Shown here: positions 8,522 to 31,943 of the stretch, piece after piece
Position numbering within the stretch: position 1 is the first letter of the stretch
Layout of the letters: the number at the start of each line of letters is the position of its first letter
Assembly: GCA_031256725.1 (NCBI GenBank)
Contig: JAIRQE010000015.1
Span: 109,149 to 141,148 of the forward strand
Direction: 5' to 3'
Origin: Propionibacteriaceae bacterium
GTDB lineage: Bacteria; Actinomycetota; Actinomycetes; Propionibacteriales; Propionibacteriaceae
Length of the DNA: 32,000 nucleotides
Translations under genes and position numbers: made by a program
The notes under the pieces: generated by a model
The model's database searches: none
Told to the model about the DNA's origin: nothing
What the model saw: the letters and a program-made list of their open reading frames with translations, nothing else

Positions 8522-8551
8522 TTGATAAAACTTGTCATTAGTTGTTATACT
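8522..8551 (+). promoter_or_regulatory. Candidate promoter of the rightward ICE operon
   Basis: TTGATA (8522-8527), an 18-nt spacer, then TATACT (8546-8551) in an AT-rich intergenic region. The -35 overlaps the second CAGATCTTGA motif. A GGAGGA RBS precedes ATG 8610. Confidence 0.45.
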
Positions 8552-8609
8552 CTCGCGTAATGTCTATTACAAGCTACTTATGAACATTTAAAGACATATT
8601 GGAGGAATT

Positions 8610-8846: not shown

Positions 8847-9894
8847 AGCTACTGGGTGGGCCTGGAATCAGACGGGGTTGAATACCTCGCAGAAAATTGT
8901 TTTGTTGGCCTTGGCTGATCAGGTCCGTTCTGCGGAGTCTGGGTGTTTTCCGATGGTGTCGTCGTTGATGGCGAAGAGTGAGTTATCTAAGACGAGTGTT
9001 ATCAGGGCGATCAGAGAGTTGGAGGCTCGTGGTTTGGTTGCGGCTTTTCCTTTACCGAGTCGTCATGGTGGGAGGCAGCATGCGAATTACTATTTGTTGG
9101 CTATTCATGGTGATTTAGATGTGAGTCGTATTGATTTAGACCGGGTGTATCGGTTGATTGAGAGGTCTGAGTTAACGGATCACGATCCCGAGTATTCCGC
9201 TTCTGTGAATAATAATGCCACCGAAATGATGGGTACCGCTGGCGACATGGGTACCGCTAGCGGTACCCATGTCAATTTGACACCCATGGTTGACAAGGGG
9301 AAACAGGGTATGGGTACCGCTGGCGACACCCATACCGCGGACGACATGGGTACCGCTGGCGATAGGGGTATGGGTACCGCTGGCGACACCCATCTATATA
9401 AGGAATTAACCAGGAATTTAAAACCTAACCTAACCGGTGTTGGTGAGGTTGGGTCGGGTGTGGATTTGAATGTGGTGTGGGAATGTTTACCTGCACGGTG
9501 GGGGGAGCATTTAGATTCGTCTGGGCTGCAGGTTGTGGGTCACCACTTGGCGGGGTTATTGGATGCTGGGTGGACTCCCCAGAGGATTCGATGTGTGCTG
9601 GAATCTAATCCGTTGCCGGAATCTCCAAAATCGTGGGTGGGTTTGATATCTCATCGGGTGAAGGGTGTTCCTGCTGTCCCACCTCGTCTGGCTCAATCTG
9701 AGGCACCACGGTTACGGGTGGTGGAGGCTCCAGTGGTTCCTGACCCGTTGTGGGTTCAGGTTATGCGTACTGCGAAGGCTGCGGGTGAACTGGTGCCAGC
9801 TCCGTTTAGTCCTCGGTTTGGTGAGTGGTTGAAAGACCGTGACCAGGGTGCGTGGGAAGTGTGGTTGGCTGAGTCATCGGGGGAGGCTGCATGA
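8836..9894 (+). CDS. HTH_36-type (phage/plasmid replication-initiator-like) DNA-binding protein with an internal MGTAGD repeat region
   Basis: The N-terminus LNTSQKIVLLALADQV...GCFPMVSSLMAKSELSKTSVIRAIRELEARGLV is typical of the winged-helix HTH_36 domain found in Rep/primosome-loader-like proteins. The central part is encoded by the repeat array at 9229-9393. Confidence 0.65.
   Translation: MSLEATGWAWNQTGLNTSQKIVLLALADQVRSAESGCFPMVSSLMAKSELSKTSVIRAIRELEARGLVAAFPLPSRHGGRQHANYYLLAIHGDLDVSRIDLDRVYRLIERSELTDHDPEYSASVNNNATEMMGTAGDMGTASGTHVNLTPMVDKGKQGMGTAGDTHTADDMGTAGDRGMGTAGDTHLYKELTRNLKPNLTGVGEVGSGVDLNVVWECLPARWGEHLDSSGLQVVGHHLAGLLDAGWTPQRIRCVLESNPLPESPKSWVGLISHRVKGVPAVPPRLAQSEAPRLRVVEAPVVPDPLWVQVMRTAKAAGELVPAPFSPRFGEWLKDRDQGAWEVWLAESSGEAA
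9229..9393. repeat. Iteron-like array: five copies of ATGGGTACCGCTGGCGA(C), one a perfect 24-bp palindrome
   Basis: Copies lie at 9229-9246, 9247-9270 (ATGGGTACCGCTAGCGGTACCCAT, a perfect palindrome), 9310-9333, 9346-9363 and 9370-9393. The stretches 9306-9333 and 9366-9393 are 28/28 identical. An AT-rich block (9394-9432) follows directly. Confidence 0.85.
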
Positions 9895-11042
9895 GTAAGA
9901 AAGTCAGCACGTGGCCAGAAATCCTTGTTGATTTCACGTTAGGGGCCGTGACGATTGGGGGGTCATCGTCACAGTTTGATGACCCTGACACTGCCCACAC
10001 TGAGGCGATTACGAGGATTCGGGGTTGGTCATCCCGGTTGAAGCGGGATTTGAATGCCACGGTGGTGTACTCAGATCGGCTGGCATCGTGGGTAGTGCCG
10101 TGTGACCCTGATGTTGAGGTTTCTGAGACTGTCACGAAAACTTTACGTGTCAAGATGCGACAGGTTCAGAAAAAAGTGGATCTCCCGAGGACAGTACCTA
10201 ATCCTGCGGATCGATCTAAGGGGAAGAAGGAGTGTGAGGAACACGAGTTTTCGGATTTGTTGGAGCTTGATTCTGGGGATGATGTTGGTATTGATGGTCT
10301 GTTGGCTAGTGCTGGAGCTGCTGATGGGTACGTGGGAGGTATTCAGAATCGTGGCGTGAAAGTGGTGATTGGGTTAGGGGTTGCGGTTATTGGGGTCATG
10401 GTTGTGGGGGTGGGATGGCTGGCTCATATGCCGTTACCGGTGACTGAGATTACTGCTACTGCAACTGTGACTGTGACTGGTAGGTCATCACCGTCGCCTC
10501 GGGTGTCGGTGACTCCAACTCCAACGAGTTCTCCAACTATGTTTGATACTGAGTCTAGTTCGGTTTCATCTGATGGTTCCGCTAGCGCGACTGTGACTCC
10601 TCGTGCGACAGCGGTGAATACTACGAGGGCTTCGAGTCAGGCCCCGGCAGTTCCTGTTCCTACTGTTGCAGCGCCACAACCTGCTCCAGCGACCACTCAA
10701 GTGGCACCTCCACCGGCTACTACAGCCCCACCACCTCCGCCACCTCCACCGCCTCCTGCTCCGGTGGCTCCGACGATTTCGAGTGTGACGTGTTCACGTT
10801 CGGGTACGAATATTTCGTCGAATGTGAGTTTCAATACGAATGGGACGAGTGGGACGGTGAGTATTAGTGTCTCGTATTCGGGTGGGGGCGCGGCTGGGTC
10901 TACTCAAAGTCGTTCGGTGAGTGGTGGGAATACGAGCGCGAATGCGGCGTGGGCGGGGATCCCATCGGACGCACCTGTGACATGTACCGCAACGATTTCA
11001 ACAACGTCTGGCTCCAGCAGTAAGTCAGCCGCAACAACATGA
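9891..11042 (+). CDS. Single-pass membrane protein with an S/T/P-rich extracytoplasmic region (contains a Pro10 run)
   Basis: 383-aa ORF with an ATGA overlap to the upstream gene. It has one TM segment (VVIGLGVAVIGVMVVGVGWLA). After it come T/S/P-rich linkers and a ~90-aa Cys-containing C-terminal domain. I recognise no family. Confidence 0.6.
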   Translation: MSKKVSTWPEILVDFTLGAVTIGGSSSQFDDPDTAHTEAITRIRGWSSRLKRDLNATVVYSDRLASWVVPCDPDVEVSETVTKTLRVKMRQVQKKVDLPRTVPNPADRSKGKKECEEHEFSDLLELDSGDDVGIDGLLASAGAADGYVGGIQNRGVKVVIGLGVAVIGVMVVGVGWLAHMPLPVTEITATATVTVTGRSSPSPRVSVTPTPTSSPTMFDTESSSVSSDGSASATVTPRATAVNTTRASSQAPAVPVPTVAAPQPAPATTQVAPPPATTAPPPPPPPPPPAPVAPTISSVTCSRSGTNISSNVSFNTNGTSGTVSISVSYSGGGAAGSTQSRSVSGGNTSANAAWAGIPSDAPVTCTATISTTSGSSSKSAATT

Positions 11043-14000
11043 GCCTCGGTGGTCATCCACTGGGGATGGTCGAAGAAAGGAAAGGGGAGGGTATGTATAC
11101 CTCGTCAATGTGGAGAAGGAAGCTCCATCGCAACCGACCTTGTGTCGGTTTTATGGGCAGGGTAGCCGCTTTTACTCTGTCTATTGCTCTGATTGGGATG
11201 ATCGCTCCGACAGCTGTTGCTGTCGAGGTTGGCAACCGTGCGTATGGTTATAGTGTGAGTTGGAGTGGTGGGAAAATTGGTCGTTACGATGGGATGTGGA
11301 TTGGATCCTATTGGACTGACATGGGTGAGGCATTTTGTGTGACTCCTCGTGGTACATCACCAACTAACGGTACTGGTTCGGGTGCGTGGTGGCTGGATGG
11401 GTGGTCGAACCAGGAGGGTGAGCAGATGACCACTCAGCAGTTGGCTCAGGCCGCGTTTCTGGCGTATTCGTATACGCAGTGGGAATCCAACCCACAAAAT
11501 GCAGCTATCATTAAGTTGGCGTTGTTGAGTGTGTTGGGTTTGGATAACGCTGAGGTGTATGGGGCTAATGGTGCTCGTGCTAATTTTGATGTCCGAGTTC
11601 CTGGCAGTGATGGTCGTATTATTGCGGACCAGTTGGGTCTGACCAGTGTGATTTTGGATTGGATTGCGCGCGCGCAGGCGCGGGCATCGACGTGGAATGG
11701 TGTCACGTCGGGGACGAAACATAACTTGAATGAGATTCGTTATCCGGGCGACACTATTAACTATGAGGTGAATTTTCCGGGTATTCCTGCCGGCTATGAT
11801 GTCTTTTGGACTATCACGAAACCGGATGGTGCTACGGTGTCGGTCACGACACAAACTAATGCTAGTGGTACTGCTGCGTTGGAGTGGGATACTCTCCCGG
11901 ATCTACTTGGGGAGTATAAGGTGAAGTGGCAGATTTTGAATGTTCCACCTCGTATTCCTTTAGCGTTTTATGGGCCTGGTCGGCCCGCACAGTTGTTGTA
12001 TATTGCTGTACCGGACACAGGACGGAAAGAGGACCCAGATAAGGTTTCATTCATCCATGATGGTGAGTTGGGTATTGAGACCCAGATTTCTGATCAGGCT
12101 GCTGAACCGGGGTCCACGATTACTGATACAGTCAGGGCGACTGGTTTAGTGCCTATGGTGTATGGAAAGTCTGTGTCGTGGAAGTTCACGGGATCGATTT
12201 TTAAGACTGCACCTGATAGTTATGGTTCGTGTCAGGAAGCGGATTGGTCTACGGGTAAAGCTGAGCAGGTTCATTCGTTTACAGAGCCGGTTCCTGCTGC
12301 GTCGATTGTTGATTATGCGGTTGAGATGACGATGGGATCGTATATGATCCCGGTGATGCACCCTGCGACGTGTTACACGTATCAGGTCAAACTGCATGGC
12401 ACATATGATGGTATGAATGAGGATCTATCGGTATCGCATGAGTTGGGTATGACGACAGAGACAACACTTGTTCGTAGTGATTTACCTGTGGTGACCTCAG
12501 CGGTGTCGAATCAGTCTGCGAATCCTGGTGAAACAATCACGGACACTGTCGAGATTACGAATATTACATTGAGGTCGGGTGTGACGTGGACACTGACGGG
12601 TACGCTCGTGGAAGCGGTCCCGGTTGATGGGGCATGTAGCAAGGTGGACTGGGGTAAGGGCACTCCAGTGAAAACGTATGAGACTGTGGTGACTGCGGCC
12701 CGGGTGTCGAATAAGACAGCGATACTATCTGGTTTGGGTGGATATGTGATTCCGAATCTACAGGAACAGATGTGCTACTCGTATGGGGCCACATTGACTG
12801 TGGTGGGTGCGGATGTGGATGTGACAGTGGAGCATCCGGTGGGTCATCCGACGCAAACCACACTGTCAAAAGATGGTCGCCCGACGTTGTCGAGTGAGAT
12901 TTCGACTCAGTCTGCGAATCCTGGTGAAACGATCACGGATACGGTGATTCTCACAAACCTGTGGATGGGTACGGGTGTGACGTGGACCGTGACAGGCATC
13001 CTCGTGGAAGCGGTCCCGGTTGATGGGGCATGTAGCAAGGTTGCCTGGGGTCAAGCCACTCAGGTGACCTCGTATGAGATGGTTGTTCAACCATCACAGG
13101 TGAATACATCTCGGACGGCACGGTTGACTGGTGTGGGGGCGTATGCGATCCCGGTGGGCCAAACCCAAATGTGTTACTCGTATGGGGTCACATTGACTGG
13201 TTCTGGTTCTGGGATCACAACAACGCGCTATGACCATCCTGTGGGTCATATGACGCAAACCACACTGTCAAAAGATGGAGTCCCGACGTTGTCGTCGCAG
13301 GTGTCACAACAAATGGCGATGCCTGGGGATACGATCACGGATACTGTCCGGGTTCGGAATCTGTGGATCACACCGTCTGTAACATGGGTGTTAACAACGG
13401 TGATTGCGGCTGCTGATCCTGTTCAGGGGTCCTGTGCGGGTGTGAACTGGGTGACCTCGCAGACGGTTCACACGTCTACCACAACGTTGACACCAGTCAT
13501 GGTTGATGCGAACCATCAGGTAACTCTGCCAGGTTTGGGTGCGTACCGCATTCCGTACAACCAACCGATTATGTGCTACTCGTATGGTGCTGTGTTGACG
13601 GCGAGTGGTGAGGGGGCTGTACCGGTCACAGTGACGCATGCCATTGGTGATGTGGCCCAAACTGCACTGGCAATGCGTGATGGGCTCATTATTATCACCG
13701 AGACCCAGATCTCGAATCAGATGGCGAATCCTGGTGAAACGATTAGGGATTACGCGCGTGCTGAAGGTCTGGTCTCGGAGTTCGACGGTGATCCAATGAA
13801 ATGGGTTTTCGAGGGAGACCTCCATCAGGCAACGGCTGACGACAATGGTGAATGTACTGACGTTGATTGGACTGATACAGAGATCGTGTACTCATGGATG
13901 ACGAAAGTAGACAATTCAAAGATCCAACTCTATGGTGTTGTGGAAGAAACCATGGGCATCTACACGATTCCTCGGTTTGAGGACGCTCACTGTTACTCAT

Positions 14001-14701
14001 ACGAAGTCAAACTCACAGGCTATTTGAATGATGAAGAGTTTTTGTCGACCTACCACCCGGTAGGTCACATAACCGAGTCCACACTGGTGCGTAGTGACAT
14101 GCCCACGATTGTTACTCAGATTTCGAATCAGAAGGCAACTCCTGGTGACACGATCAGTGACATGGTGATGATCAGCAACTTGCATTTTGATCCTGTCGAT
14201 GACGCACCGTTATCATGGAACATGCAAGGCATCCTCGTGAAAGCGGCCCCGGTGGATGCAGGCTGTGCGACAGTGGACTGGACTCACGGCAAAACTGTGC
14301 ATGAATTCTCTGCTCTCATAACTGAAGACATGCTGGTTGAAGATTCCCCGAACTCATATACCGTTGCCGGTTTGGGTGCCTATACGATCCCGTCAGGCGA
14401 ACCAGAAATGTGTTACACATTTGGGGAGACGCTTATTGCTGCCTGGGAATCATCCGACGACCCAGATGATCCTAGTGAGGAGCCACCCACCACAGTCCAC
14501 CCGGTTGGGCATGTTCAACAAACCACACTGGTTCCGTCAGGGATTAAGCCTGTCGCGACTGGTGGCACAGTTGTGACTGACCGGAATCTGTTGTTGGTGG
14601 TTGTGTTGTCATCACTGGTCATGATTGGTGGTTACGGTATTGCTACAGGGATAGGACGCATACGCAGCCACCGTCAACGTTCACTGCCTTCACAGCGGTG
14701 A
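11039..14701 (+). CDS. Large surface adhesin: signal peptide, N-terminal unique domain, six ~130-aa Ig-like repeats, C-terminal sortase-type anchor
   Basis: 1220-aa ORF. ATG 11039 overlaps the upstream stop as ATGA. An alternative ATG at 11093 follows a GGGGAGG RBS. Signal-like segment: RVAAFTLSIALIGMIAPTAVA. The six repeats are described in the next feature. The C-terminus is PVATGG (14549-14566) followed by a hydrophobic helix and an RIRSHRQR tail. Confidence 0.8.
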   Translation: MSLGGHPLGMVEERKGEGMYTSSMWRRKLHRNRPCVGFMGRVAAFTLSIALIGMIAPTAVAVEVGNRAYGYSVSWSGGKIGRYDGMWIGSYWTDMGEAFCVTPRGTSPTNGTGSGAWWLDGWSNQEGEQMTTQQLAQAAFLAYSYTQWESNPQNAAIIKLALLSVLGLDNAEVYGANGARANFDVRVPGSDGRIIADQLGLTSVILDWIARAQARASTWNGVTSGTKHNLNEIRYPGDTINYEVNFPGIPAGYDVFWTITKPDGATVSVTTQTNASGTAALEWDTLPDLLGEYKVKWQILNVPPRIPLAFYGPGRPAQLLYIAVPDTGRKEDPDKVSFIHDGELGIETQISDQAAEPGSTITDTVRATGLVPMVYGKSVSWKFTGSIFKTAPDSYGSCQEADWSTGKAEQVHSFTEPVPAASIVDYAVEMTMGSYMIPVMHPATCYTYQVKLHGTYDGMNEDLSVSHELGMTTETTLVRSDLPVVTSAVSNQSANPGETITDTVEITNITLRSGVTWTLTGTLVEAVPVDGACSKVDWGKGTPVKTYETVVTAARVSNKTAILSGLGGYVIPNLQEQMCYSYGATLTVVGADVDVTVEHPVGHPTQTTLSKDGRPTLSSEISTQSANPGETITDTVILTNLWMGTGVTWTVTGILVEAVPVDGACSKVAWGQATQVTSYEMVVQPSQVNTSRTARLTGVGAYAIPVGQTQMCYSYGVTLTGSGSGITTTRYDHPVGHMTQTTLSKDGVPTLSSQVSQQMAMPGDTITDTVRVRNLWITPSVTWVLTTVIAAADPVQGSCAGVNWVTSQTVHTSTTTLTPVMVDANHQVTLPGLGAYRIPYNQPIMCYSYGAVLTASGEGAVPVTVTHAIGDVAQTALAMRDGLIIITETQISNQMANPGETIRDYARAEGLVSEFDGDPMKWVFEGDLHQATADDNGECTDVDWTDTEIVYSWMTKVDNSKIQLYGVVEETMGIYTIPRFEDAHCYSYEVKLTGYLNDEEFLSTYHPVGHITESTLVRSDMPTIVTQISNQKATPGDTISDMVMISNLHFDPVDDAPLSWNMQGILVKAAPVDAGCATVDWTHGKTVHEFSALITEDMLVEDSPNSYTVAGLGAYTIPSGEPEMCYTFGETLIAAWESSDDPDDPSEEPPTTVHPVGHVQQTTLVPSGIKPVATGGTVVTDRNLLLVVVLSSLVMIGGYGIATGIGRIRSHRQRSLPSQR
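12074..14530 (+). repeat. Six tandem ~130-aa domain repeats inside the adhesin gene
   Basis: Each repeat starts (T/S)Q(I/V)SxQxAxPG(E/D)TI(T/R)D, has two conserved Cys (G.C..V.W and (M/H/T)CY(S/T)(Y/F)), and ends HP(V/I)GHxxQTTL. Repeats 2 and 3 share exact DNA blocks 396 bp apart, for example 41 bp at 12605-12645 = 13001-13041. Confidence 0.85.
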
Positions 14702-21034: not shown

Positions 21035-22536
21035 TGGTCATGGTTGAGCAGTATCTCCCAGATGGACCATTGTATGATATCCCTGCGGGATTAGAGCCGG
21101 GGTCTCGTGGATGGGCGGGTCCTGGTGGGGGATATGCAGGTCGTGTCCCACAGCTCCCACAGTATCGAGGCACAACGTTTCAGGTATGTGGTTTGTATCC
21201 GTGGGGGACGGGTGTGGAAGCACCACTGATTGGGGCACCCATGGGTAGGCACCTCATCACAGGTGCGAATGTGTGTTGTGATCCAGTGTCCTGGTTCACG
21301 ATTGCGAAACTGATTACGAATCCGAGTGAGTTTGTGTTGGGGTTGCCCGGGTTTGGAAAATCTTCCCAGGTTCGTCACCAACTGACTGGACAGTGTGCGT
21401 TCGGAGATATTCCCATGGTGCTTGGTGATTTGAAACCTGACTATGTGGAGTTGTGTCAGGCGATGGAAGGCCAGGTTTTGACTATTGGGCGTGGTCGTGG
21501 ATATTTGAACATCCTCGACCCAGGAGATACATATCAGGCAGTAAAAATGCTGCACTCGAAAGGCTTCCATAAAGAGGCGAATGGAGTTGCTGCTGATGCT
21601 CATGGGCGAGCACTGTCTATGCTGTGCGCCTTGATTGAAATCTATATGCATGAGCAAGTGTCTGGAACAGAAAAATCGATCCTGGATGCTGTGTTGAAAG
21701 TTCTGAATGAACGACCTCAAGGGGAGCCTCCCACATTACCGGATGTGTTCATGGTCATTCAGTCGGCCCCAGATCCGGTTCGTGCTCGGACGCTCGATTA
21801 CGGTGACTTGCGTACATATCAGCAGGAAACCCGCCGCTTAGAGAAGGCATTGATGGGGTTGATTAAGGGATCTCACTTGGGTGAAACTTTCTGTCAACGC
21901 TCATCAGTGGTCATGGATCGCCACCGTATGATCGCCTATGATATTTCTAATATCGCTGAATCGGAAACTGATCTGGCTGCCGCCACGTTGTTGGCGTGTT
22001 GGAGTCAAGGGTTCGCGGCAGTGAACTTATCTCATGTGCTTGCTGATTGTGGCCTGGAAGAACGACGAGTTTACGTTCCTGTTCAGGACGAGTTGTGGAG
22101 GGCCGTGAAAGTGGGTCCATGGATGGTGGACCGCATGGATGGCACGACCAGGTTGAACCGTCAAGATGGGACTGCTCCTATCAAAATCACTCACACCATG
22201 AAAGACCTGGTTGTGCCGAATGATCCGGCAGCGACTGAACAAGCCATGGGGTTTGTAGAACGGTCAGGGATTGTGATATGCGGGGCGCTTCCTGATAGTG
22301 AAATGGCTCGATTGAATCAGGTTCGACGGTTCACCAGACCCGAGCAAGACATGATGGTGTCGTGGCAAAACCCTGGACCGATGGATCGTATGGGTCGCGC
22401 CCAGTCACCTCCAGGCGTGGGACGGTTCATGATTAAAGTTGGTGGCCGTCCTGGTATTCCTGTCCAGGTGCAACTGACAGATCGTGAACGCCCAGCGTCG
22501 GACACCAACAAACGTTGGGCTGGGGTGGGATCATGA
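21034..22536 (+). CDS. VirB4-type T4SS ATPase (ATPase module)
   Basis: Walker A LGLPGFGKSSQV and Walker B VYVPVQDELW. ATG 21034 shares one base with the upstream TGA. The listed 20989 start would overlap the upstream gene by 46 nt. Confidence 0.8.
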   Translation: MVMVEQYLPDGPLYDIPAGLEPGSRGWAGPGGGYAGRVPQLPQYRGTTFQVCGLYPWGTGVEAPLIGAPMGRHLITGANVCCDPVSWFTIAKLITNPSEFVLGLPGFGKSSQVRHQLTGQCAFGDIPMVLGDLKPDYVELCQAMEGQVLTIGRGRGYLNILDPGDTYQAVKMLHSKGFHKEANGVAADAHGRALSMLCALIEIYMHEQVSGTEKSILDAVLKVLNERPQGEPPTLPDVFMVIQSAPDPVRARTLDYGDLRTYQQETRRLEKALMGLIKGSHLGETFCQRSSVVMDRHRMIAYDISNIAESETDLAAATLLACWSQGFAAVNLSHVLADCGLEERRVYVPVQDELWRAVKVGPWMVDRMDGTTRLNRQDGTAPIKITHTMKDLVVPNDPAATEQAMGFVERSGIVICGALPDSEMARLNQVRRFTRPEQDMMVSWQNPGPMDRMGRAQSPPGVGRFMIKVGGRPGIPVQVQLTDRERPASDTNKRWAGVGS

Positions 22537-23300
22537 GTTCCCGTGGTCATCACCACCGTCGGTCCATTAGTTGGTTGGATCCACAACTGTGGCTCATGAT
22601 CGTTGGTGTGGGTGGGGTTGTGGTGATTCTCGCCGGTGTGAATGTGCCTCTTCGTCTGGCTGAAACATGGTGGCCATCGGGACAAACTCTTGATTCAAAC
22701 TGGTTCAGTGTGGTGATCAAGGTCGTGAAAGGCCACACACAGTGGACTCCACCAGCAACCTGGGTTGCTGGTGGAATGCTTGGGGTTCTCCTTTGTGGCC
22801 TTGCGGCGGGTCTGATCATGTATCGATCATGGAATCGTCGTACATCACGGTTGGATTGGTGCGCTGAATACATGGGATGGGGTGACGAAATCCTTCCGAT
22901 CACTGCTGATCATGCAGAGAAGATGGCTCACCAACTCGGAGTGAAAGCGTTACCACCGTCACCCACTTTGGATCACATGACTCGTAGCATGAATGGATAC
23001 ACATTCAGTGGGACAGGGATACCACGGGCAGTAGTGACAGTCATCACCCTTGATACTGAGGTTGCGTCCACAGTGTGTGATGAGAAGGGGCAGTGGATGG
23101 CCACTGTCAATGGTCGTCTTCCTGCAGGAACATCAGTGATGGTGGTTCATGCAGCCACCAATGATAAACCCGAGTCATTAGCATCGTCTGCGATCCGTGC
23201 TGAACGTGTTCGCGTGTTGCCTCGCCCATCCACGCGCAAGTCCACAACTATGACGGCAGCTGTGCTGAATGGAACATTTCGCGTCGGAGGTCACATATGA
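22533..23300 (+). CDS. Two-TM membrane protein with a C-terminal Ig-like domain; likely the detached membrane anchor of the coupling protein
   Basis: It has ATGA overlaps at both ends. TM1 is LWLMIVGVGGVVVILAGV and TM2 is WVAGGMLGVLLCGLAAGLIMY. The C-terminal segment YTFSGTGIPRAVVTVITLDTEVASTVCDEKGQWMATVNGRLPAGTSVMVVHAATND resembles bacterial Ig-like repeats. Confidence 0.6.
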   Translation: MSSRGHHHRRSISWLDPQLWLMIVGVGGVVVILAGVNVPLRLAETWWPSGQTLDSNWFSVVIKVVKGHTQWTPPATWVAGGMLGVLLCGLAAGLIMYRSWNRRTSRLDWCAEYMGWGDEILPITADHAEKMAHQLGVKALPPSPTLDHMTRSMNGYTFSGTGIPRAVVTVITLDTEVASTVCDEKGQWMATVNGRLPAGTSVMVVHAATNDKPESLASSAIRAERVRVLPRPSTRKSTTMTAAVLNGTFRVGGHI

Positions 23301-24643
23301 GGTTGAGAGAGAATTACGGGGGAGTTCCACGGGGTCTTCCGCTCGGCTATGAGGTTCGTACTGGTGTGGAATTGTGGTCAACTTGGGAGGACATGGTGGT
23401 CACGATTGCTGGGCCGCGTACAGGGAAAACAACCTCATATTCCATTCCTCACATCATGGCCGCTCCTGGCCCAGTGATTGCAACCTCGAATAAACGCGAC
23501 ATTGTGGATGCGACCAGGGGTCCACGCAGTGAACGCGGACGTGTTGATATATACGACCCGCAACAGGTCTATGGGGTTGCCCCAGAGTTCTCATGGCCAC
23601 CCCTGTCCTATGTGACCGATGAGGTGACAGCAAAGAAAATGGCGGCACACTTTGCCGCTGGTTCGAGAGAACTGGGCGCACACACTGATGCGTTCTTTGA
23701 TCCAGCAGGGCAGGACCTTCTTACAGGGTTCATGCTGGCAGCCTCAATGGCGAACTACGACATCATTCAAGTTCCCACATGGTTAGCCCAACCAGGTAAC
23801 CAAGAACCTGTCGAGATTCTGCGGCACTACAAGTTTGATGTGTTGGCAGACATTCTCCTTAGTCATGTGACAGGACCCAGTGATCAACGTGGTGGTATCT
23901 ATGGGACTGCACAAACCATGACAACGTGTTTGTCCACCCGCACCATTCTGCCATGGATTGTCTGTAGTGATGATCGGCCAGTTTTCGATCCAGATCTGTT
24001 CGTCAGATCTGGGGGCACCCTGTATTCGATTTCGCGCGAAGGTCAAGGCAGTACAGGTCCTCTCGTGACAGCTCTGACTGTGGCTGTCGTTGAAGCGGCA
24101 GAACGCTACGCGAATCAGTGTGTCGGTGGGCGACTTCCCACCCCTCTCGTGGGTGCGCTCGATGAGCTCGCGAATATCTGTCGGTGGGGTGATCTCCCAG
24201 ACCAGTATTCCCATTTCGGTAGCAAAGGGATCATTCTGAACGCGATCCTCCAGAACTGGGCTCAAGGTGAATTGGTGTGGGGGGAGAAAGGGATGTGGAA
24301 ACTCTGGGCCGCCGCCAACATTGCTATTTATGGTGGTGGCGTCAAGGAACGAGCGTTTACGGAAAACATGGCTGCAGCCATTGGCGAATATGAACGTTTA
24401 GATGTGTCGGATTCTCGCAGTGAATCTGGCCGGTCAGTGTCACGCTCCCATCACATGAGATCCATCATGCCAGCCTCAGACCTGGAATCCCTGCCCCGAG
24501 GACGATCTGTGATCTTCGCATCTGGGGCACGACCTTGTCTCGTCAAAACCCGTCCCTGGATGAATGAGCCCTATGCCCCAGACATCAGAGCATCTATTGA
24601 CACGTATGGCCCGAAAGCCGTGAAAAGAAAGGTACACCAATGA
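23297..24643 (+). CDS. VirD4/TraG-type type IV coupling protein, soluble NTPase module (no TM segments)
   Basis: Walker A VTIAGPRTGKTTSY and Walker B-like PLVGALDELANI. The C-terminal region has the PRGRSVIFASG..P pattern typical of T4CPs. Confidence 0.8.
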   Translation: MRLRENYGGVPRGLPLGYEVRTGVELWSTWEDMVVTIAGPRTGKTTSYSIPHIMAAPGPVIATSNKRDIVDATRGPRSERGRVDIYDPQQVYGVAPEFSWPPLSYVTDEVTAKKMAAHFAAGSRELGAHTDAFFDPAGQDLLTGFMLAASMANYDIIQVPTWLAQPGNQEPVEILRHYKFDVLADILLSHVTGPSDQRGGIYGTAQTMTTCLSTRTILPWIVCSDDRPVFDPDLFVRSGGTLYSISREGQGSTGPLVTALTVAVVEAAERYANQCVGGRLPTPLVGALDELANICRWGDLPDQYSHFGSKGIILNAILQNWAQGELVWGEKGMWKLWAAANIAIYGGGVKERAFTENMAAAIGEYERLDVSDSRSESGRSVSRSHHMRSIMPASDLESLPRGRSVIFASGARPCLVKTRPWMNEPYAPDIRASIDTYGPKAVKRKVHQ

Positions 24644-24819
24644 CCCTTAGTGATAGACCCGACCATGAGTCAGCCGAACATATTGTAGAACCTGGAAGCC
24701 ATGAAGCCCTCTTGATTATTGATGAACTCTTAGGGGACTTGGACACCAATCAGGATCCCAGTGCCACTCACAATCTCGTGGACCAGATCCGTGAATTACT
24801 CCCAGAACGGCCACACTAA
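24640..24819 (+). CDS. Small acidic protein (59 aa), absent from the ORF track because it is below the length cutoff
   Basis: MTLSDRPDHESAEHIVEPGSHEALLIIDELLGDLDTNQDPSATHNLVDQIRELLPERPH. Its ATG overlaps the T4CP stop (ATGA at 24640-24643). Its TAA overlaps the ardC ATG (TAATG at 24817-24821). Confidence 0.55.
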   Translation: MTLSDRPDHESAEHIVEPGSHEALLIIDELLGDLDTNQDPSATHNLVDQIRELLPERPH

Positions 24820-25901
24820 TGCCTAGGCTGTATCTCACCCAGGACGAACGTGATGAACGTCTCACCGACCTCCATACCAGTATCTCTGAGCAGGTGTCTC
24901 GCCTCACCAGTGAACAAGCATGGAAAGACTATTTGAAAATCGCTGCTCGATTTCATCACTATTCATTTAATAATCAGATGCTGATTATGGTGCAAAACCC
25001 AGAAGCTCGCCATGTAGCTGGCTATAGACGATGGCAACACATGGGCAGACAGGTTCGTAAAGGTGAAACAGGGATAGCAATTCTGGCACCTGTCACGAAA
25101 CGTGAAGTGACCTCAACCCCGTCAGATCCCATGTCCTGGCGTGACTTGGGATACAAAGAGTCCCCCAAACCTGGAGAGGTCACAAGAACAAAAATGGTGT
25201 CAGTGAAAGGCACATTTGTATTCGATTATGACCAAACTGATGGGGACCCTATTGAAGCATTAGAGATACGTAAGCCTCGACTAGTGGAAGGGGCCGCACC
25301 GCATGGATTGTGGGAGTCAGTAGTTGACCTCATCCAGGATCAAGGGTTCACGGTACATGACGTGAACAACTCTGAGGTCATACATGGTGCCAATGGTGTT
25401 ACGGACTTCGCAGATCGTACAGTACAGGTTCGCCGTGATATGGATGCGGCAGCGAGAGTGAAAACTCTCATCCATGAATATGCACATATTGCTCTTGATC
25501 ATGAAAACCGGCGAGATAACGAAGACCTTCATCGAGGCGTTAGCGAAGTCGAAGCCGAATCAGTGGCATACCTAGTCGGAGAAGCCCACGGCATGGACAC
25601 AAGTCAATATTCGATTCCCTATGTCGCTGGATGGGCAGAAACCGTGACCACGGCCACGTCTGTGGAAGATGTGATCAAAGAAACGGGGAGTCGCGTCACG
25701 AAGACTGCGGCAACCATTCTTCAGGCCACTTTCCCCAAGGATACTGTTGAGGAATCCGTGATACACGAAGCGGCCCTTGTCACAGCGGTCACACCGTACC
25801 AGTCAGTGTGTGCTCACCCTGTTGGAACGCCCCAGGCCATGACCTCAAGTACTAGTACGTCCTTGACCTCACCTCGCAAAACGAAAGGCAGGACACGATG
25901 A
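24819..25901 (+). CDS. ardC: ArdC-type antirestriction protein (ssDNA-binding N-domain + HExxH metalloprotease domain) with an extra ~45-aa C-terminal tail
   Basis: The N-domain is YSFNNQMLIMVQNPEARHVAGYRRWQHMGRQVRKGETGIAILAP. The protease motif is LIHEYAHIALDH. The tail is TPYQSVCAHPVGTPQAMTSSTSTSLTSPRKTKGRTR. Confidence 0.85.
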   Translation: MPRLYLTQDERDERLTDLHTSISEQVSRLTSEQAWKDYLKIAARFHHYSFNNQMLIMVQNPEARHVAGYRRWQHMGRQVRKGETGIAILAPVTKREVTSTPSDPMSWRDLGYKESPKPGEVTRTKMVSVKGTFVFDYDQTDGDPIEALEIRKPRLVEGAAPHGLWESVVDLIQDQGFTVHDVNNSEVIHGANGVTDFADRTVQVRRDMDAAARVKTLIHEYAHIALDHENRRDNEDLHRGVSEVEAESVAYLVGEAHGMDTSQYSIPYVAGWAETVTTATSVEDVIKETGSRVTKTAATILQATFPKDTVEESVIHEAALVTAVTPYQSVCAHPVGTPQAMTSSTSTSLTSPRKTKGRTR

Positions 25902-27040
25902 TCACCTGGCAAGATACCCGGGAAGAACTCTTAGCATGTCTCCCAAGTCAAGAACAGTTGAGTGCTATACGAACAGTGTCTCGCACTTACACTCCTGAGG
26001 GGCAACTGACGGATGGAGACCGTCAACAACTTCTCGTAGATGCGGAAACTCTCGCAACAGTACTGGGTACAGATTGGGAACTTCTCAATACTGGTGACCC
26101 TCTCACAAAAATGATTGCTCAACGAGCTAATCGGGAAACTCTTCGACATACGACTCCACAAGGCGTGGTTGATGCACTCATAGCTGCAAGCCGTTGGGCT
26201 GATGCGAACCTTCCTGGTACGTCTGCTCTGGCACGAGAAGCGAAGTCTGCCCAAGAGTTCATCTGCACAGAACTACGACGCTATTGGGGTATTGATCTGC
26301 AGGATCGCGGTTTAGACCCCAACCACGTTCGTTACGAGCAACGAAATCAGGATGTCACGCATCTAGAGTGGCCGCTTAAATCCACATCACCTGGAATGAC
26401 GTCATGGTGGGAAGAATCCTCAACTGAGGACAAGATTGTTGCTTGGGAAAGCGTGCTTGAAGGCCGCTCGGATATATGGACAGAAGAGCTTCTTCGTGCA
26501 CAGTTCGCGCTGCGGTACGACATTGATTACCCTACTCTTGATGAAGTTGAACACTATGAAAGTATTATCGAGTGGGAAAACACTCTGAACAGGGGGCGCA
26601 CCTATTGGTTTATGGGTGGGGCTGCTGATCGGGTTAAAGACTGGGCAGATTCTAAGGGCCTTGAACCAAATCCTGATCATCCAAATCATTACAGGGAGGA
26701 TCATTACGAAGGCCAACATGAGATAACTGTGTTTATTGACACAGGAACTCCAGATAATGAACTCCGACAAGAATTGATTGCTTTCGTCAATGCCAATCTC
26801 ACACCCAGGGAACGACTTGGCGTCATTGATCCAATGACTGGGGCCGCCTCTGTTGTCGCAGTTGATAGTACGCATCCTCCGCAAGCAGTTCTGTCATCAT
26901 CTGTCACTGAGCTGCAGCTTGTACAAGCATACCAATCCGTGTGTGGTGCCCCTATTGTAGGCCGGGCTGCGTCAGTACATACTCAACCCGGAGTTGCGCC
27001 GACTATGCAGCTATCACAGGTTCGTAGGAGTACATCATGA
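25898..27040 (+). CDS. 380-aa protein of unknown function, paralog 1 (WW..ST.ED / RYDID motifs, YQSVC tail)
   Basis: It has an ATGA overlap with ardC. It shares its N-terminal ~215 aa and the C-terminal cassette with 27252..28394. Shared motifs: RRYWGIDL, SWWEESSTEDKIVAW, ALRYDID. Confidence 0.7.
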   Translation: MITWQDTREELLACLPSQEQLSAIRTVSRTYTPEGQLTDGDRQQLLVDAETLATVLGTDWELLNTGDPLTKMIAQRANRETLRHTTPQGVVDALIAASRWADANLPGTSALAREAKSAQEFICTELRRYWGIDLQDRGLDPNHVRYEQRNQDVTHLEWPLKSTSPGMTSWWEESSTEDKIVAWESVLEGRSDIWTEELLRAQFALRYDIDYPTLDEVEHYESIIEWENTLNRGRTYWFMGGAADRVKDWADSKGLEPNPDHPNHYREDHYEGQHEITVFIDTGTPDNELRQELIAFVNANLTPRERLGVIDPMTGAASVVAVDSTHPPQAVLSSSVTELQLVQAYQSVCGAPIVGRAASVHTQPGVAPTMQLSQVRRSTS

Positions 27041-27255
27041 GTGAACGGACGGGATTGTTAGCCATGGTCCAAGCTGATTCTTCCATGGTCCGTGGCGGCG
27101 TCCTTAGTATTGATATCGAATTCGCAGATTCTGACACTCGCCTCCAGTCGAATCCCATAGTTTCCCAGCAACCCAAGCTCAACCTCACTCTCATCCAGGG
27201 CATCTCGTTCCCAGCGCGTAATTCTCACACGGCAGCCGAGAGGAGAAATCAATGA
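27037..27255 (+). CDS. 72-aa protein of unknown function
   Basis: ATGA overlaps at both its start (27037-27040) and its end (27252-27255) tie it into the coupled gene chain. I see no motif. Confidence 0.5.
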   Translation: MSERTGLLAMVQADSSMVRGGVLSIDIEFADSDTRLQSNPIVSQQPKLNLTLIQGISFPARNSHTAAERRNQ

Positions 27256-28394
27256 CAACAGATTGGGAAGCTGATAGTCGCCAGCTTGCACACTTGCTAC
27301 CAACCTTTGACAGCATCATGGCCGTCCGTGACACTGGGGCATGGATCACTCCTGGAGCGCCGTGGAGAGCTAATGATTCGAAACAGTTACGTGCAGCGAG
27401 AACCCGGGTCGCTGCGATACTTGGGACACGCTGGCTCACATCAGGACATAGTTGGGATGGTGAAGACACTGCCACACTAAGGGCCCGGACTCCGCAAGAT
27501 GTCGCCGATATTCTCACCTCAACCATGCCATACGCTTACGCGTCGGGATTCGGAACAGAGCCACTCTCCCAACTTCACTACATTATTGAAAGAAACTTGA
27601 AAAACTATTGGGGAATAGATGTGAGTGAACTGGACTCAACCTTGTCTGCACCGAGTCATGTACGTAGCGCTGCGCGTGCCTTTGAAGTAGAAGAAGCCAG
27701 GGCAGAACGATTCGAATATGAATGGAATCGTCAAACAGGAGGGGATCCAACCTGCCCAGATCTGGGCTACCTCTTCACGCCGCAATGGTGGGAAACAGCT
27801 ACCGCTGAAGACATCCGGGAAGCCCGGCAAGAAGCCCTCCTGTACAAAGGAATCTCAACCCGACCTATCAACATGATCGAAGCCGAACTAGCTCACCGAT
27901 ATGGCATGGACGACACTCGTGCGAACGCCGATATCGCAGCAGTCATGCCCACACAGTCTGCTCCTCAACGCAACTATGTGGAAATTGTTATGATTCACGG
28001 TGACCAAGCAGCTCCCATCCTGGAATGGATCACCGACCAAAATTTCGAACGAGCATTCGAATACCTCGGGCAGTGGGATTACGGAGAAACCTCAGATCAA
28101 ACAGCCCACACAAGCGACACACTCAATCAACAACCCTGGGATGACGCAGAAGACTACACTCGTGAATTTCACACCCCAGGCCCTGAACCATTGCACTACA
28201 TCATGAACTGGAACCATCAACGTAGTTATGTAGGTCTCACCAGAATAGGGGTCATGGCCACATCCATTCCAACCACGCCAGTGGTCCCGTATCAATCAGT
28301 GTGCGCACTACCAGTCAGTGCGAGCATCCCCACATCGTCTTCCCCCACTCCAACCAGCCCATCAACACGACCATCTATGGGCCGGACGCGCTGA
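27252..28394 (+). CDS. 380-aa protein of unknown function, paralog 2 (WW..AT.EDI / RYGMD motifs, YQSVC tail)
   Basis: Motifs KNYWGIDV, QWWETATAEDIREA and AHRYGMD. The tail is VPYQSVCALPVSASIPTSSSPTPTSPSTRPSMGRTR. It is the same length as paralog 1. Confidence 0.7.
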   Translation: MTTDWEADSRQLAHLLPTFDSIMAVRDTGAWITPGAPWRANDSKQLRAARTRVAAILGTRWLTSGHSWDGEDTATLRARTPQDVADILTSTMPYAYASGFGTEPLSQLHYIIERNLKNYWGIDVSELDSTLSAPSHVRSAARAFEVEEARAERFEYEWNRQTGGDPTCPDLGYLFTPQWWETATAEDIREARQEALLYKGISTRPINMIEAELAHRYGMDDTRANADIAAVMPTQSAPQRNYVEIVMIHGDQAAPILEWITDQNFERAFEYLGQWDYGETSDQTAHTSDTLNQQPWDDAEDYTREFHTPGPEPLHYIMNWNHQRSYVGLTRIGVMATSIPTTPVVPYQSVCALPVSASIPTSSSPTPTSPSTRPSMGRTR

Positions 28395-29152: not shown

Positions 29153-29632
29153 CTACTGCGACTCAGCGGCTTCAGCAGCTGCAAGACGATCCCCGATAGT
29201 TTCTTTGGAAAACATCCCCAGTGGTGGTGCGATCACAGGTAACGGCTCACCCTGAGTTACCTGATCAGAATAATTGTAGCCATACGCGTACAGTGGCCCC
29301 TCAGGAGCTAGAATCAACGTCATATGGTAGTCCACATGCTCCTTCAACCAAATACTCATCGCGGGACCAGATTCCAGGCGGGCTGACTCAAAAGCACGCC
29401 ACATCGCCTCCATTCGAATCACCACTTCAGCAGAATCAAACCAACGCGAAGTCCACATAGAATTACGACCATCAACCTTGCGGACATACCAGCTTGCTAA
29501 CCACTCTACGAATTGGTTAAGCGTCTCATGCATCGGTGGGGGACCCCCTTCAGCCGGAGCATTCAAATCAACAACTGGTTCGACTTCATGCCCATGTTCG
29601 CGTGGTTCATCTGGAAGTCCGGCAATAGTCAT
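29153..29632 (-). CDS. DUF4913-like protein (common partner of actinobacterial T4SS relaxase/T4CP genes)
   Basis: FVEWLASWYVRKVDGRNSMWTSRWFDSAEVVIRMEAMWRAFESARLESGPAMSIWLKEHVDYHMTLILAPEGPL matches the DUF4913 pattern as I remember it. The start is set to ATG 29632, which forms an ATGA overlap with the relaxase stop. Confidence 0.75.
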   Translation of the reverse strand: MTIAGLPDEPREHGHEVEPVVDLNAPAEGGPPPMHETLNQFVEWLASWYVRKVDGRNSMWTSRWFDSAEVVIRMEAMWRAFESARLESGPAMSIWLKEHVDYHMTLILAPEGPLYAYGYNYSDQVTQGEPLPVIAPPLGMFSKETIGDRLAAAEAAESQ

Positions 29633-31320
29633 CGTTTCAGTTCCCTTCTCTGTTGGGGATTCTGAGCCGGGGGCTTCGACAGTTGTGGCGCTGAAGGCGC
29701 TGGTTGTCCAGTACGCTGACGAGCCGCCCACTCTGCACCAATAGCAGTCACTGGCTTCGCAAACGGAGACACATATTGACGGTACTGAGACCGAGTGTTC
29801 ATCGTAGAATACGCATACTCCAAGTCAGATTTCCATACCAGTTCAAGCCGCTTCGCCTGCTCAAATTCACGTCGCGCTGCAGCTGCTTTCGCCACGGCTC
29901 GTGTCAACGCCATCATCGACTGCAGCACCAACATATATGACCCGATACCCTCACCCTTAGCAGCGATCAACAAACCCACACGAGCTGCACTGATCAACCC
30001 TGTGAGATTCACCCGAGGCTGTGATTGAGGTTCCTTCAATGTTTGAGCAGAGATCCCCACAGCATGAGCAGCATGAGCAAGAGGACCCGGTTCTGGCTCC
30101 GTCGCCCGACTCATACTCCACAGCACTCCTGAACATTGCCGAGCTACAACAGCCCATGCATCCACATCATGAGGATCCACAAACCGCAGCGCGTCGATCA
30201 CCTCAATTAACCGCTCTTCAAGATCCCAGGCAGTCTCCACCACAGTCTCATCGACTACACCAGTAATGCGTTTCCCTGCTCCAGCAACCGTCCACGCGGC
30301 TACCGTCAACTCCTGCTGTGAATCCCGCTCGCCCCATCCTTGACGTAACCGAGGAAGAGTCAAATCATTACCTAACCGAATCCCCGAAAAGAACACAGGC
30401 TTCTCACCAGGAACAGGAGGCAACGCAACCGAATACCCCTCAACACTACTCATCCCACCCTTTGCAAACCGAGGGCGAACCCACACTCCCTGCTCACGAA
30501 TACGATGAACAAACTCCAACTCACTCTGTGATGAAACAGCACACTGACGAACAACCCCAGCCAGTCGATACCGGGGGATCCACACCTTCAACTCTTCACT
30601 CAACAACTGGTATTGATGCTCACGGGACAACGCATCCCACTTCACATTCACCATGCCACCAAGTGAAGAATTCCCTAAACCATTCTCGTAACGAGAACGA
30701 GCAGAAACCCACGCCTGGGCCTCCACCTTAGCTCTCTCAGCCTGACTGTATCCTTTCAACGAACGCCCCATTTCACGGCCCTCAACACTCTCCAACCCAT
30801 GCCGCAACTCAATCACACGAGCCGCCGCCTGAGCACGAGCATAATCACAATGAACGTTCGCAACCCGACCATCATCATGAACCAAATTCACCACAATATG
30901 AATATGATCATTCCCAGCCAACGAAGCCCCATGATGGAAAGCAGCCCACCTCAAACCCAACACAGAATCCTCATCAACCACGTCATGCTCAAAACCCATC
31001 TCCACCAAAAACTCCCGAGCAATCTCAGCCCACTCTCCATCATCAATCTGACGATCCGTATGCTTAATATTCAACGAGCAATGCCACACATGCCCATCCT
31101 TCACAGTCTTCTCATGATGACGCCGGGGCCGATCCAACCACTTCGCCATAGCAATCGCATCATCACGACCAAGATCATGACAACGAACACCCCACTTCGC
31201 CACCACAAAATCACTCCCAGAAATCAACCGCTGATCATAATGCTCATTATGCTTACCCTCACCCAACGCATAAACAATAATCCCCGTCATACGATCCCCA
31301 CGAGTCACATTCGGAATCAC
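29629..31320 (-). CDS. Relaxase/mobilization nuclease (MobA/VirD2 family, MOBP-like)
   Basis: The N-terminus is (M)IPNVTRG...GIIVYALGEGKHNEH, and the histidine triad context is HHGASLAGNDHIHIVVN. GTG 31320 (GGAGG 7 nt upstream, GTGA overlap with the mobC stop) is preferred over GTG 31326. Confidence 0.85.
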   Translation of the reverse strand: MIPNVTRGDRMTGIIVYALGEGKHNEHYDQRLISGSDFVVAKWGVRCHDLGRDDAIAMAKWLDRPRRHHEKTVKDGHVWHCSLNIKHTDRQIDDGEWAEIAREFLVEMGFEHDVVDEDSVLGLRWAAFHHGASLAGNDHIHIVVNLVHDDGRVANVHCDYARAQAAARVIELRHGLESVEGREMGRSLKGYSQAERAKVEAQAWVSARSRYENGLGNSSLGGMVNVKWDALSREHQYQLLSEELKVWIPRYRLAGVVRQCAVSSQSELEFVHRIREQGVWVRPRFAKGGMSSVEGYSVALPPVPGEKPVFFSGIRLGNDLTLPRLRQGWGERDSQQELTVAAWTVAGAGKRITGVVDETVVETAWDLEERLIEVIDALRFVDPHDVDAWAVVARQCSGVLWSMSRATEPEPGPLAHAAHAVGISAQTLKEPQSQPRVNLTGLISAARVGLLIAAKGEGIGSYMLVLQSMMALTRAVAKAAAARREFEQAKRLELVWKSDLEYAYSTMNTRSQYRQYVSPFAKPVTAIGAEWAARQRTGQPAPSAPQLSKPPAQNPQQRRELKR

Positions 31321-31706
31321 AACCACACCTCCATCAAGCGCTCTTCAATGTCATCCAACGACATCGCATGCCCCACACAATAAGCCCTCCACGACTCCAA
31401 CACTGCCTCATCAAACTCCCCAGTACCATGCAACCGCTTCGCGATCTGATTCACATTATTCGCAACATTCGCCATCAACCGCGACAACCGTGCCAACTCA
31501 CTCAACACCACGATCTTCTCATCCCGCGACATCCCACCAGACTGAGGTGACAGGACAGCATCAATCATCAATCGAGGAACACTCACCTGAGCAGTCTCAG
31601 CCAACTCTCTCAACACCAATTCCTGATCCTCAGACACAGTAACCCGATGAGAAAACTGCCGCCCACCCTTCACATTCGCCTGCCGTCTTCGACCAATCTT
31701 CAACAC
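31317..31706 (-). CDS. mobC: MobC-family relaxosome accessory protein (RHH-like)
   Basis: RVTVSEDQELVLRELAETAQVSVPRLM is RHH-like, and ELARLSRLMANVANNVNQIAKRLH is the MobC signature. GTG 31706 lies 9 nt after a GAAGGAGG RBS, whereas GTG 31715 directly abuts that RBS. Confidence 0.8.
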   Translation of the reverse strand: MLKIGRRRQANVKGGRQFSHRVTVSEDQELVLRELAETAQVSVPRLMIDAVLSPQSGGMSRDEKIVVLSELARLSRLMANVANNVNQIAKRLHGTGEFDEAVLESWRAYCVGHAMSLDDIEERLMEVWL

Positions 31707-31715
31707 AATACACAC

Positions 31716-31943
31716 CTCCTTCGCCTAGCGCAGCGACCCCACCAGGGGATTCAACACAACAAGAATACCGCAGCGAACAGCGAGGATCAAGACTTATGGC
31801 ACATAAGTCTATAGCTTGCTCTGTCTAGGACACGATATTCTGAATCTTACGACGGCTAGGCGTAAGATTCGCGAGGAAAAACATCTAACACATTTTATGT
31901 GTTGGCGGTGTATATTCGGAAAATGAACGCCGCTAACGCGGCG
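31716..31943. promoter_or_regulatory. Candidate oriT / mobC promoter region with four perfect hairpins
   Basis: Four perfect inverted repeats. AGACTTATG/CATAAGTCT (31790-31810, 3-nt loop). GAATCTTACG/CGTAAGATTC (31842-31870, 9-nt loop). AACACAT/ATGTGTT (31887-31903, 3-nt loop). CGCCGC/GCGGCG (31928-31943, 4-nt loop). The region lies directly upstream of mobC-relaxase. Confidence 0.5.

Follow-up and report, generated by a model that had tools for sequence, protein, structure and literature searches.

A shared C-terminal cassette on ArdC and two paralogs of a propionibacterial conjugative element as a candidate docking or type IV secretion tag

What is a tail for when proteins of different kinds carry the same one? 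The question arises in a 32,000-nt stretch of a Propionibacteriaceae metagenome-assembled genome (contig JAIRQE010000015.1; hereafter the window, whose positions are used throughout), where a conjugative element encodes three proteins that end in the same way. These are an ArdC homolog of 360 amino acids (aa; 24819-25901, + strand), which combines an ArdC-N single-stranded DNA (ssDNA)-binding domain with an HExxH metalloprotease and a C-terminal extension of ~57 aa, and two proteins of 380 aa, paralog 1 (P1; 25898-27040, +) and paralog 2 (P2; 27252-28394, +). ArdC, P1, and P2 all end in YQSVC followed by 29, 31, and 29 residues, respectively, and ArdC and P2 finish with GRTR. The three tails are best explained as one homologous C-terminal module of ~45 residues, here called the cassette. 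Our favoured reading, with a probability of roughly 0.35, is that the cassette is a type IV secretion system (T4SS) or partner-docking tag, i.e., a handle for one element-encoded partner, probably the T4SS substrate receptor.

A first-pass annotation of this DNA had proposed that the three proteins share one C-terminal cassette, and its open reading frames (ORFs), lengths, and tails, including the 29/31/29 residues after the Cys and the GRTR of ArdC and P2, were reproduced from the sequence. The same is true of the YQSVC codons at 25797 (ArdC), 26930 (P1), and 28290 (P2), which differ from one another by synonymous changes. The YQSVC core that it singled out is present in all three proteins, but the conserved block is longer and comprises 14 residues, T.V.PYQSVCA.PV, or [TL]x[VL]x[PQ](A)YQSVC[AG]xP[VI] as the three-protein pattern. 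This anchor lies at 25782-25823 in ArdC (TAVTPYQSVCAHPV; +, with YQSVC at 25797-25811), at 26912-26959 in P1 (LQLVQAYQSVCGAPIV; +), and at 28275-28316 in P2 (TPVVPYQSVCALPV; +). It is followed by a S/T/P-rich spacer of ~20 residues and an Arg-rich tip, giving 45-47 residues overall. The GRTR tip of ArdC (GGC AGG ACA CGA; 25887-25898, +) overlaps the ribosome-binding site (RBS) and ATGA start of P1, while that of P2 (GGC CGG ACG CGC TGA; 28380-28391, +) is uncoupled to any downstream start.

Six-frame translation of the whole window placed YQSVC at just these three sites and GRTR before a stop codon twice. A hidden Markov model (HMM) of the tail scored 72-81 bits on the ArdC, P1, and P2 ORFs and 7 bits on the next best ORF in the window. 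Local alignment scores of the tails were compared with those of 2000 shuffles, and the similarity was far above them; the ArdC-P2 score of 87 (shuffled, 34.6 ± 6.0) and the P1-P2 score of 53 (25.4 ± 5.0) were each reached by 0/2000 shuffles, and the ArdC-P1 score of 41 (26.3 ± 5.4) corresponded to p = 0.0145.

The first-pass annotation had also placed this conservation at the level of the protein rather than the DNA, and the codons bear it out. The ArdC and P2 tails are identical at 19 of 39 residues, with the same codon at 5/19 and different codons at 14/19, and 12 of the 14 anchor residues are kept, all at a nucleotide identity of 53%. Within the YQSVC core, the variable sites (4/4) are third codon positions. 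That the block and tip have been preserved despite saturation at synonymous sites marks the event as old, and the codon comparison shows that purifying selection acting on the protein maintains the module. P1 and P2 are true paralogs (25% identical, E = 7e-14), whereas ArdC is unrelated to them outside the tail. Because the ArdC tail is nonetheless nearer to that of P2 than the P1 tail is, the simplest history would be transplantation of the tail between non-homologous genes via an ancient 3'-end exchange. P1 and P2 would have received the module from their common ancestor, and ArdC by an old exchange with a P2-like gene.

In ArdC, the cassette is an addition to the conserved domains. The ArdC-N domain matched PF08401 (E = 6.8e-11; 42.9 bits, with the cut-off at 22.6), and 3949 homologs were found. 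Residues H219, E220, and H223 of the HExxH active-site helix and E243-V244-E245-A246 of the downstream Glu helix are invariant in a 21-sequence alignment and lie in a region with a predicted local distance difference test (pLDDT) score of at least 90; close homologs of ArdC match PF06114. The alignment with about 3900 ArdC relatives runs out near residue 303, and the ArdC of R388 is 297 aa long and has no tail (PMC7213743), in agreement with the earlier view that the tail extends past the HExxH domain as an appendage. In the AlphaFold model, residues 310-360 of ArdC have a pLDDT <50, so that this tail is predicted to be disordered, and the last 30 aa of ArdC, P1, and P2 carry net charges of +5, +3, and +3, on acidic bodies in P1 and P2 (isoelectric points (pI) of 4.7 and 4.9). 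The disorder and positive charge expected at first pass were therefore recovered, the former as a prediction for ArdC and the latter in all three. The structure model of P2 was poor (pLDDT 49.6), and a Foldseek search of the PDB with this poor model gave no match with E ≤ 0.001.

Several familiar kinds of C-terminal peptide were considered and rejected. C-terminal sorting signals (LPXTG, PEP-CTERM, MYXO-CTERM, and similar) were set aside because no hydrophobic helix follows the motif; the 29-31 residues after the Cys are S/T/P/A-rich and contain no hydrophobic stretch. Clamp- or SSB-tip motifs do not fit the sequences. As for a tail of the kind found in SSB, the protein that binds single-stranded DNA, the carriers had no SSB match and their tips are basic (GRTR, RRSTS), not acidic and D-D-D-I-P-F-like.

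The genomic setting brings the cassette close to the transfer machinery. A VirD4-type coupling protein (T4CP) of 448 aa (23297-24643, +; TraG-D_C, E = 1.6e-26; T4SS-DNA_transf, E = 3.8e-12) is followed by an acidic 59-aa ORF (24640-24819, +; pI 4.4), which has an ATGA overlap with the T4CP gene and a TAATG junction with ArdC. ArdC, P1, and P2 had been described as three consecutive, overlap-linked genes. The overlaps are present, but P1 and P2 are separated by a 72-aa ORF (27037-27255, +), which is also in public gene predictions and has an ATGA overlap on either side. The whole chain T4CP-59aa-ArdC-P1-72aa-P2 is thus joined by ATGA or TAATG overlaps, such that the three cassette carriers are translationally chained to the T4SS coupling protein, with the module outside the conserved ArdC domains. 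Searches with the 59- and 72-aa ORFs found no homologs or domains; their products could be adaptors or chaperones.

We propose that ArdC, P1, and P2 all use the module to dock on a single partner encoded by the element, most probably the VirD4-type substrate receptor whose gene lies immediately upstream, perhaps reached via the 59-aa or 72-aa proteins. On this view, ArdC and both paralogs with the relaxosome module would be made in the donor along with the T4SS, be exported alongside the ssDNA, and take effect early in the recipient. Three precedents support this scheme: for export by VirB/D4, an Arg-rich C-terminal signal of 19-50 residues is sufficient (PMC10025392), the pED208 T4SS exports ParA, ParB, SSB, PsiB, and PsiA (PMC8406263), and the TraC1 and Sog primases pass to the recipient in conjugation (PMC7213743). 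A role of the cassette in transfer is tentatively supported by the chaining to the coupling protein and by a module that P1 and P2 have in common with a basic-tailed relaxase-operon protein. More doubtful is the narrower proposal that the cassette is a portable signal of the SCO6880-type T4SS, moved between genes, in which YQSVC would be the docking site for the receptor or an adaptor and the ArdC protease would possibly remove the tail later.

The module in question spans ~46 residues, WW[DE]x[AS]TxE[DQ]I...RYG[IMF]D, and reads WWE..T.ED...RYDID in P1 and WWETATAEDI...RYGMD in P2. It is shared with the family of a 239-aa protein encoded directly after P2 (28409-29128, +; WWD module), whose last 30 aa have a net charge of +9 and which lacks YQSVC (hhalign probability 83%, E = 9e-6, 46 columns). 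The 239-aa ORF product is 38% identical to a pS16-2 protein (E = 2e-27). Its unannotated family, the third gene of the mobC-relaxase operon on plasmids that share the SCO6880/VirB4-like/T4CP/DUF4913 backbone of the element, occurs in at least 107 actinobacterial plasmid records, with hosts including Arthrobacter, Rhodococcus, Glutamicibacter, and Prescottella equi. All members (L110 22935-23795, L111 29495-30361, L113 3992-4852, L114 3992-4849, and L115 3992-4840) have a basic disordered tail, ...PKARKTRGR..QVQRxGLDR, with a net charge of +6 to +9 and no gene coupled downstream. The ArdC tip PRKTKGRTR resembles RKTRGR of this tail. By position, the 239-aa ORF is the member nearest to the usual place of the family directly after the relaxase; P1 and P2 match the family in the module alone and are located after ArdC in the T4CP operon, not after the relaxase.

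Beyond this module, P1 and P2 have few relatives. P2 alone found no homolog but itself among 5.8 billion proteins, and a P1+P2 profile run against 1.84 billion representatives found just one full-length protein, P0123, and one fragment, both without the cassette. P0123, the sole full-length P1/P2 homolog, is encoded on a 2.2-kb metagenome contig (L084), is exactly 380 aa long, and ends in SFWERGL. Its gene is flanked by one for an SSB-like protein and one for a DnaB-like helicase, a context that hints at replication or ssDNA for the P1/P2 family. Neither paralog had a Pfam, NCBIfam, or helix-turn-helix (HTH) match, and no function emerged from PHROGs or NCBIfam for either of them or for the 59-, 72-, and 239-aa ORFs. 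Residues 241-331 of P2 (27972-28244) match phrog_23219 (E = 2.7e-8), a phage family of unknown function.

A search for further carriers by tail HMM and pattern, as suggested at first pass, returned none beyond the three proteins. The tail alignment gave no candidates in a word-indexed protein search, and a degenerate DNA pattern for PYQSVCAxP gave 22 matches in metagenome contigs, all of them chance short ORFs. The tail HMM found nothing in 80 integrative and conjugative element (ICE) loci bearing an ArdC. In these loci (L004-L083, with ArdC at ~10001-11100 of each), we studied the main-family actinobacterial ArdC, whose tail is disordered but different; a GDPPGL motif is followed by 30-60 variable P/A/R-rich residues and then R-[GS]-L. 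The GDPPGL motif was specific to ArdC and was not found in the neighbours of main-family ArdC. Many of these homologs are mis-named 'serine/arginine repetitive matrix protein 2'. Within the window, the tails of the relaxase and the 239-aa ORF were tested for a degenerate cassette, and neither was significant (relaxase shuffle p, 0.09-0.62).

The first-pass annotation had counted tail-less homologous elements as evidence against a tag, and in part they exist: main-family ArdCs, plasmids of the same backbone, and the full-length P1/P2 homolog all lack the cassette. The tail-less ArdCs of pS16-2, a Xylanimonas plasmid, pARLON1, pTZC1, and R388 are encoded alongside ssb and par genes, outside the T4SS operon. 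It is suggestive, in a small and phylogenetically confounded sample of few lineages, that the tail goes with an ardC embedded in a donor-expressed transfer operon.

The tips of ArdC and P1 require a separate reading. The end of ArdC, AAAGGCAGGACACGATGA, carries the RBS and start of P1, and the end of P1, AGGAGTACATCATGA (tip RRSTS, AGGAG..ATGA), carries those of the 72-aa ORF. With the Shine-Dalgarno sequence and start of the following gene embedded in these tips, some of their positive charge could have arisen as a coding by-product, and protein-level selection on the basic tips of ArdC and P1 is ambiguous. The GRTR of P2 is free of this constraint, since the next RBS lies after the stop codon, and it differs from that of ArdC at three synonymous positions. 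The lack of an RBS role for the P2 tip indicates that the anchor block and the P2 tip are selected at the protein level.

A comparable situation was found in the main family, where the Prim-Pol encoded downstream of ArdC often also ends in R-[GS]-L. We considered this ending as a family-wide tag and rejected it, as the tip is the Shine-Dalgarno sequence plus the stop/start overlap; R-[GS]-L is encoded by (A/C)GG-(G/A)GN-CTG-TGATG in 57/58 unique main-family ArdC 3' ends, with the rare codons AGG, GGG, and AGC. Some other tips, from DNA-processing proteins of related ICEs, have uncoupled 3' ends and do look as if selected as protein; they are conserved, hydrophobic or Arg-x-Leu in type, and close disordered tails. 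TrwC relaxases end in RRSL, PLSL, GPRL, or GRTL (L010 1293-4904 (-), L053, L056, and L082), a ParB_N-like protein ends in HLRAL in 29/55 cases (L009 13930-15234), and SSB-like proteins with disordered tails end in RLGL, AIGL, or AVGI (L071 13407-13859 and 13934-14386). The tips of ICE DNA-processing proteins could be a weak common C-terminal signature, which we treat as a lead only given the little information in the motifs.

Several observations weigh against a docking or export tag. Export or partner binding by the tail is a proposal drawn from sequence and precedent, and no search by protein, profile, DNA pattern, or HMM turned up a second element with the cassette. On plasmids that share the T4SS backbone, ArdC is 295-302 aa long, tail-less, and acidic at its end, and the relaxase, the one certain T4SS substrate of the element in the window, has no YQSVC block. 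For the R388 ArdC, production in the recipient is enough, and the donor can do without it. In addition, the basic tips of ArdC and P1 coincide with the Shine-Dalgarno sequence and start of the next gene, and the analogous R-[GS]-L tip of the main family is almost wholly explained by the downstream start signal.

The tail could instead act within one cell. In this alternative, which is possible though in our estimate rather unlikely, the tail would be a cis-acting DNA- or partner-binding extension by which ArdC, P1, and P2 assemble on the DNA or relaxosome without secretion, in the manner of SSB's disordered linker and tip or of basic DNA-binding tails. ArdC is, by its ArdC-N domain, an ssDNA-binding protein, the module of P1 and P2 is common to a relaxase-operon protein with a conserved and strongly basic tail, and their sole full-length homolog is encoded between SSB-like and DnaB-like genes. 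The SSB-like tips RLGL/AIGL/AVGI of related ICEs also resemble the tips AVAL/GVGL/VVRL of ArdCs in the same elements. However, a non-specific basic tail would need no conserved uncharged YQSVC block, the net charge is a modest +3 to +5, other ArdCs bind ssDNA without a tail (PMC7213743), and the tip here is basic while that of SSB is acidic.

The conserved block could instead be read by a protease. Here YQSVC would be a processing site for the ImmA/IrrE-like metalloprotease of ArdC itself, which would clip about 25-31 residues off ArdC, P1, and P2. Such clipping might activate or release the proteins or strip a delivery tail after transfer, and it can coexist with a tag; we regard either form as distinctly unlikely. 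The HExxH motif of ArdC is intact (H219/E220/H223 invariant), its homologs match PF06114, and the protease is encoded with its putative substrates. The strongest conservation is found in the ~14-residue block at the start of the tail rather than the tip, as a recognition site would have it, and M78 proteases do cut near the C-terminus; IrrE cuts DdrO 23 residues from its end and ImmA cuts ImmR at F95/M96 (PMC6868357). On the other hand, no substrate is known for any ArdC and the protease activity is dispensable in R388 antirestriction (PMC7213743). The known M78 substrates are XRE repressors, while P1 and P2 have no HTH and only the position is analogous. Main-family ArdCs, with the same protease domain, have no tail block in common with their neighbours, and the conservation of GRTR in P2 is left unexplained.

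A tail without a dedicated function, i.e., a low-complexity tail inherited by duplication whose basic ends are imposed by downstream RBSs, appears very unlikely. Its appeal comes from the ends of ArdC, P1, and the 72-aa ORF, whose coding sequence consists of AGGA or AGGAG with an ATGA junction, from the same effect accounting for R-[GS]-L in 57/58 main-family ArdC 3' ends, and from the cassette being an orphan of one element. Against this, 19/39 residues, including 12/14 of the anchor, have been kept at saturated synonymous sites, the GRTR of P2 has no RBS role and three synonymous differences from that of ArdC, and the tail has been transplanted between non-homologous genes. Finally, a DNA or RNA element (binding site or structure; candidate TAYCARTCNGTGTGY) repeated in three gene 3' ends is hardly credible. 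The 15-nt core does occur three times on the same strand, but nucleotide identity outside it is ~53%, its four variable positions are all third-codon positions, and the similarity is far stronger in protein than in DNA.

The remainder of the window places the cassette operon within a recognizable transfer region. Housekeeping genes (argS, M18 aminopeptidase) stop near 8 kb, and the conjugative element extends from there on; its ORFs agree with publicly available gene predictions for this element in an independent assembly. At 8001-9000, the GC content drops to 0.457 where the argS/M18 aminopeptidase/prepilin peptidase-like genes meet the first element gene, and this dip is the probable left boundary. 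The element encodes an HTH protein, a 1220-aa surface protein, an M23 peptidase, a TrbC-like pilin, an SCO6880-family protein, a VirB4-like ATPase, and the VirD4-type T4CP, with DUF4913, a MobA/VirD2-type relaxase, and MobC on the opposite strand. The 1220-aa protein (11039-14701), likely an adhesin on the surface of the mating apparatus, combines a T-Q ester-bond domain with a C-terminal hydrophobic segment and, after this, a basic end.

The T4CP begins straight at the Walker A region and has no N-terminal transmembrane segment, while the T4CPs of related plasmids are ~599 aa long. A 255-aa protein with two hydrophobic stretches and an immunoglobulin-like domain (22533-23300, +; weak Big_6/Big_13 matches and sequence inspection) is encoded upstream and overlaps the T4CP start. 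Because the T4CP lacks this N-terminus and is overlapped by such an ORF, the coupling protein may be split, with the 255-aa product supplying its membrane part. On the - strand lie the genes of the DUF4913 protein (29153-29632), the relaxase (29629-31326; P/Q/A-rich basic tail, net +6, ending in QQRRELKR), and the MobC-like relaxosome protein (31317-31715). Just upstream of mobC, two perfect inverted repeats at 31790-31810 and 31842-31870 (AGACTTATG/CATAAGTCT and GAATCTTACG/CGTAAGATTC) mark a candidate origin-of-transfer region.

At present, the cassette is a single-element observation, with three carriers in one element. If the docking or export reading is true, a short transplantable tail on three donor-expressed proteins would be a candidate signal for the actinobacterial T4SS and a handle for finding the cargo of actinobacterial conjugation systems, as well as possibly the first substrate site of an ArdC protease. 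A tail that is merely DNA- or partner-binding, or neutral, would be a curiosity of one element.

Among the closest known systems are the Agrobacterium VirB/D4 signals (VirE2, VirF, VirD5; RSF1010 MobA), which like the cassette are extreme C-terminal, unstructured, and net positive or Arg-rich (PMC10025392). They measure ~20-50 residues, and a VirD4-type coupling protein recognizes them on proteins that are otherwise unrelated (PMC10025392). They have no conserved uncharged block, however, and were defined experimentally in Proteobacteria, whereas the cassette is a candidate signal. To our knowledge, nothing equivalent has been described for actinobacterial SCO6880-type T4SSs, and we know of no translocation signal defined for the T4SS-type conjugation systems of Actinobacteria. 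The Bartonella BID domain with its basic tail and the Xanthomonas XVIPCD are also element-specific C-terminal modules on several different cargoes, but they are folded domains of about 100-140 residues, in contrast to a disordered peptide of ~45 residues in a single element. As to cargo, Sog/TraC1 and the pED208 proteins ParA/ParB/SSB/PsiB/PsiA are establishment or DNA-metabolism proteins of mobile elements delivered by a conjugative T4SS (PMC8406263; PMC7213743). No common linear signal has been defined for these substrates, and ArdC export here is a proposal. A docking or export role would also bear on the question whether antirestriction proteins like ArdC accompany the DNA in protein form.

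For ArdC itself, the IncW plasmid R388 provides the reference, with the same ArdC-N ssDNA binding and HExxH metalloprotease, and antirestriction in the recipient is known only for the R388 and pSa ArdCs (PMC7213743). The window ArdC differs in its ~57-aa extension and its location inside a T4SS operon, while the R388 ArdC is tail-less and required in the recipient rather than the donor. The M78/COG2856 pairs of IrrE with DdrO and of ImmA with ImmR resemble the locus in position, with the partner cut 23 to about 30 residues from its C-terminus and the cassette block located at a distance of 25-31 residues from the protein ends; cleavage in those pairs falls in an inter-helix loop of XRE repressors, whereas the putative substrates here are ArdC itself and two HTH-less proteins. 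The SSB tail likewise follows a DNA-binding body and pairs a low-complexity linker with a short conserved motif that recruits partners, but its acidic tip (D-D-D-I-P-F) stands at the very end, while in the cassette the motif opens the tail and a basic tip closes it. Disordered basic C-terminal tags and protein co-transfer are thus already known; a transplanted tail with an uncharged anchor in an actinobacterial T4SS element would be new.

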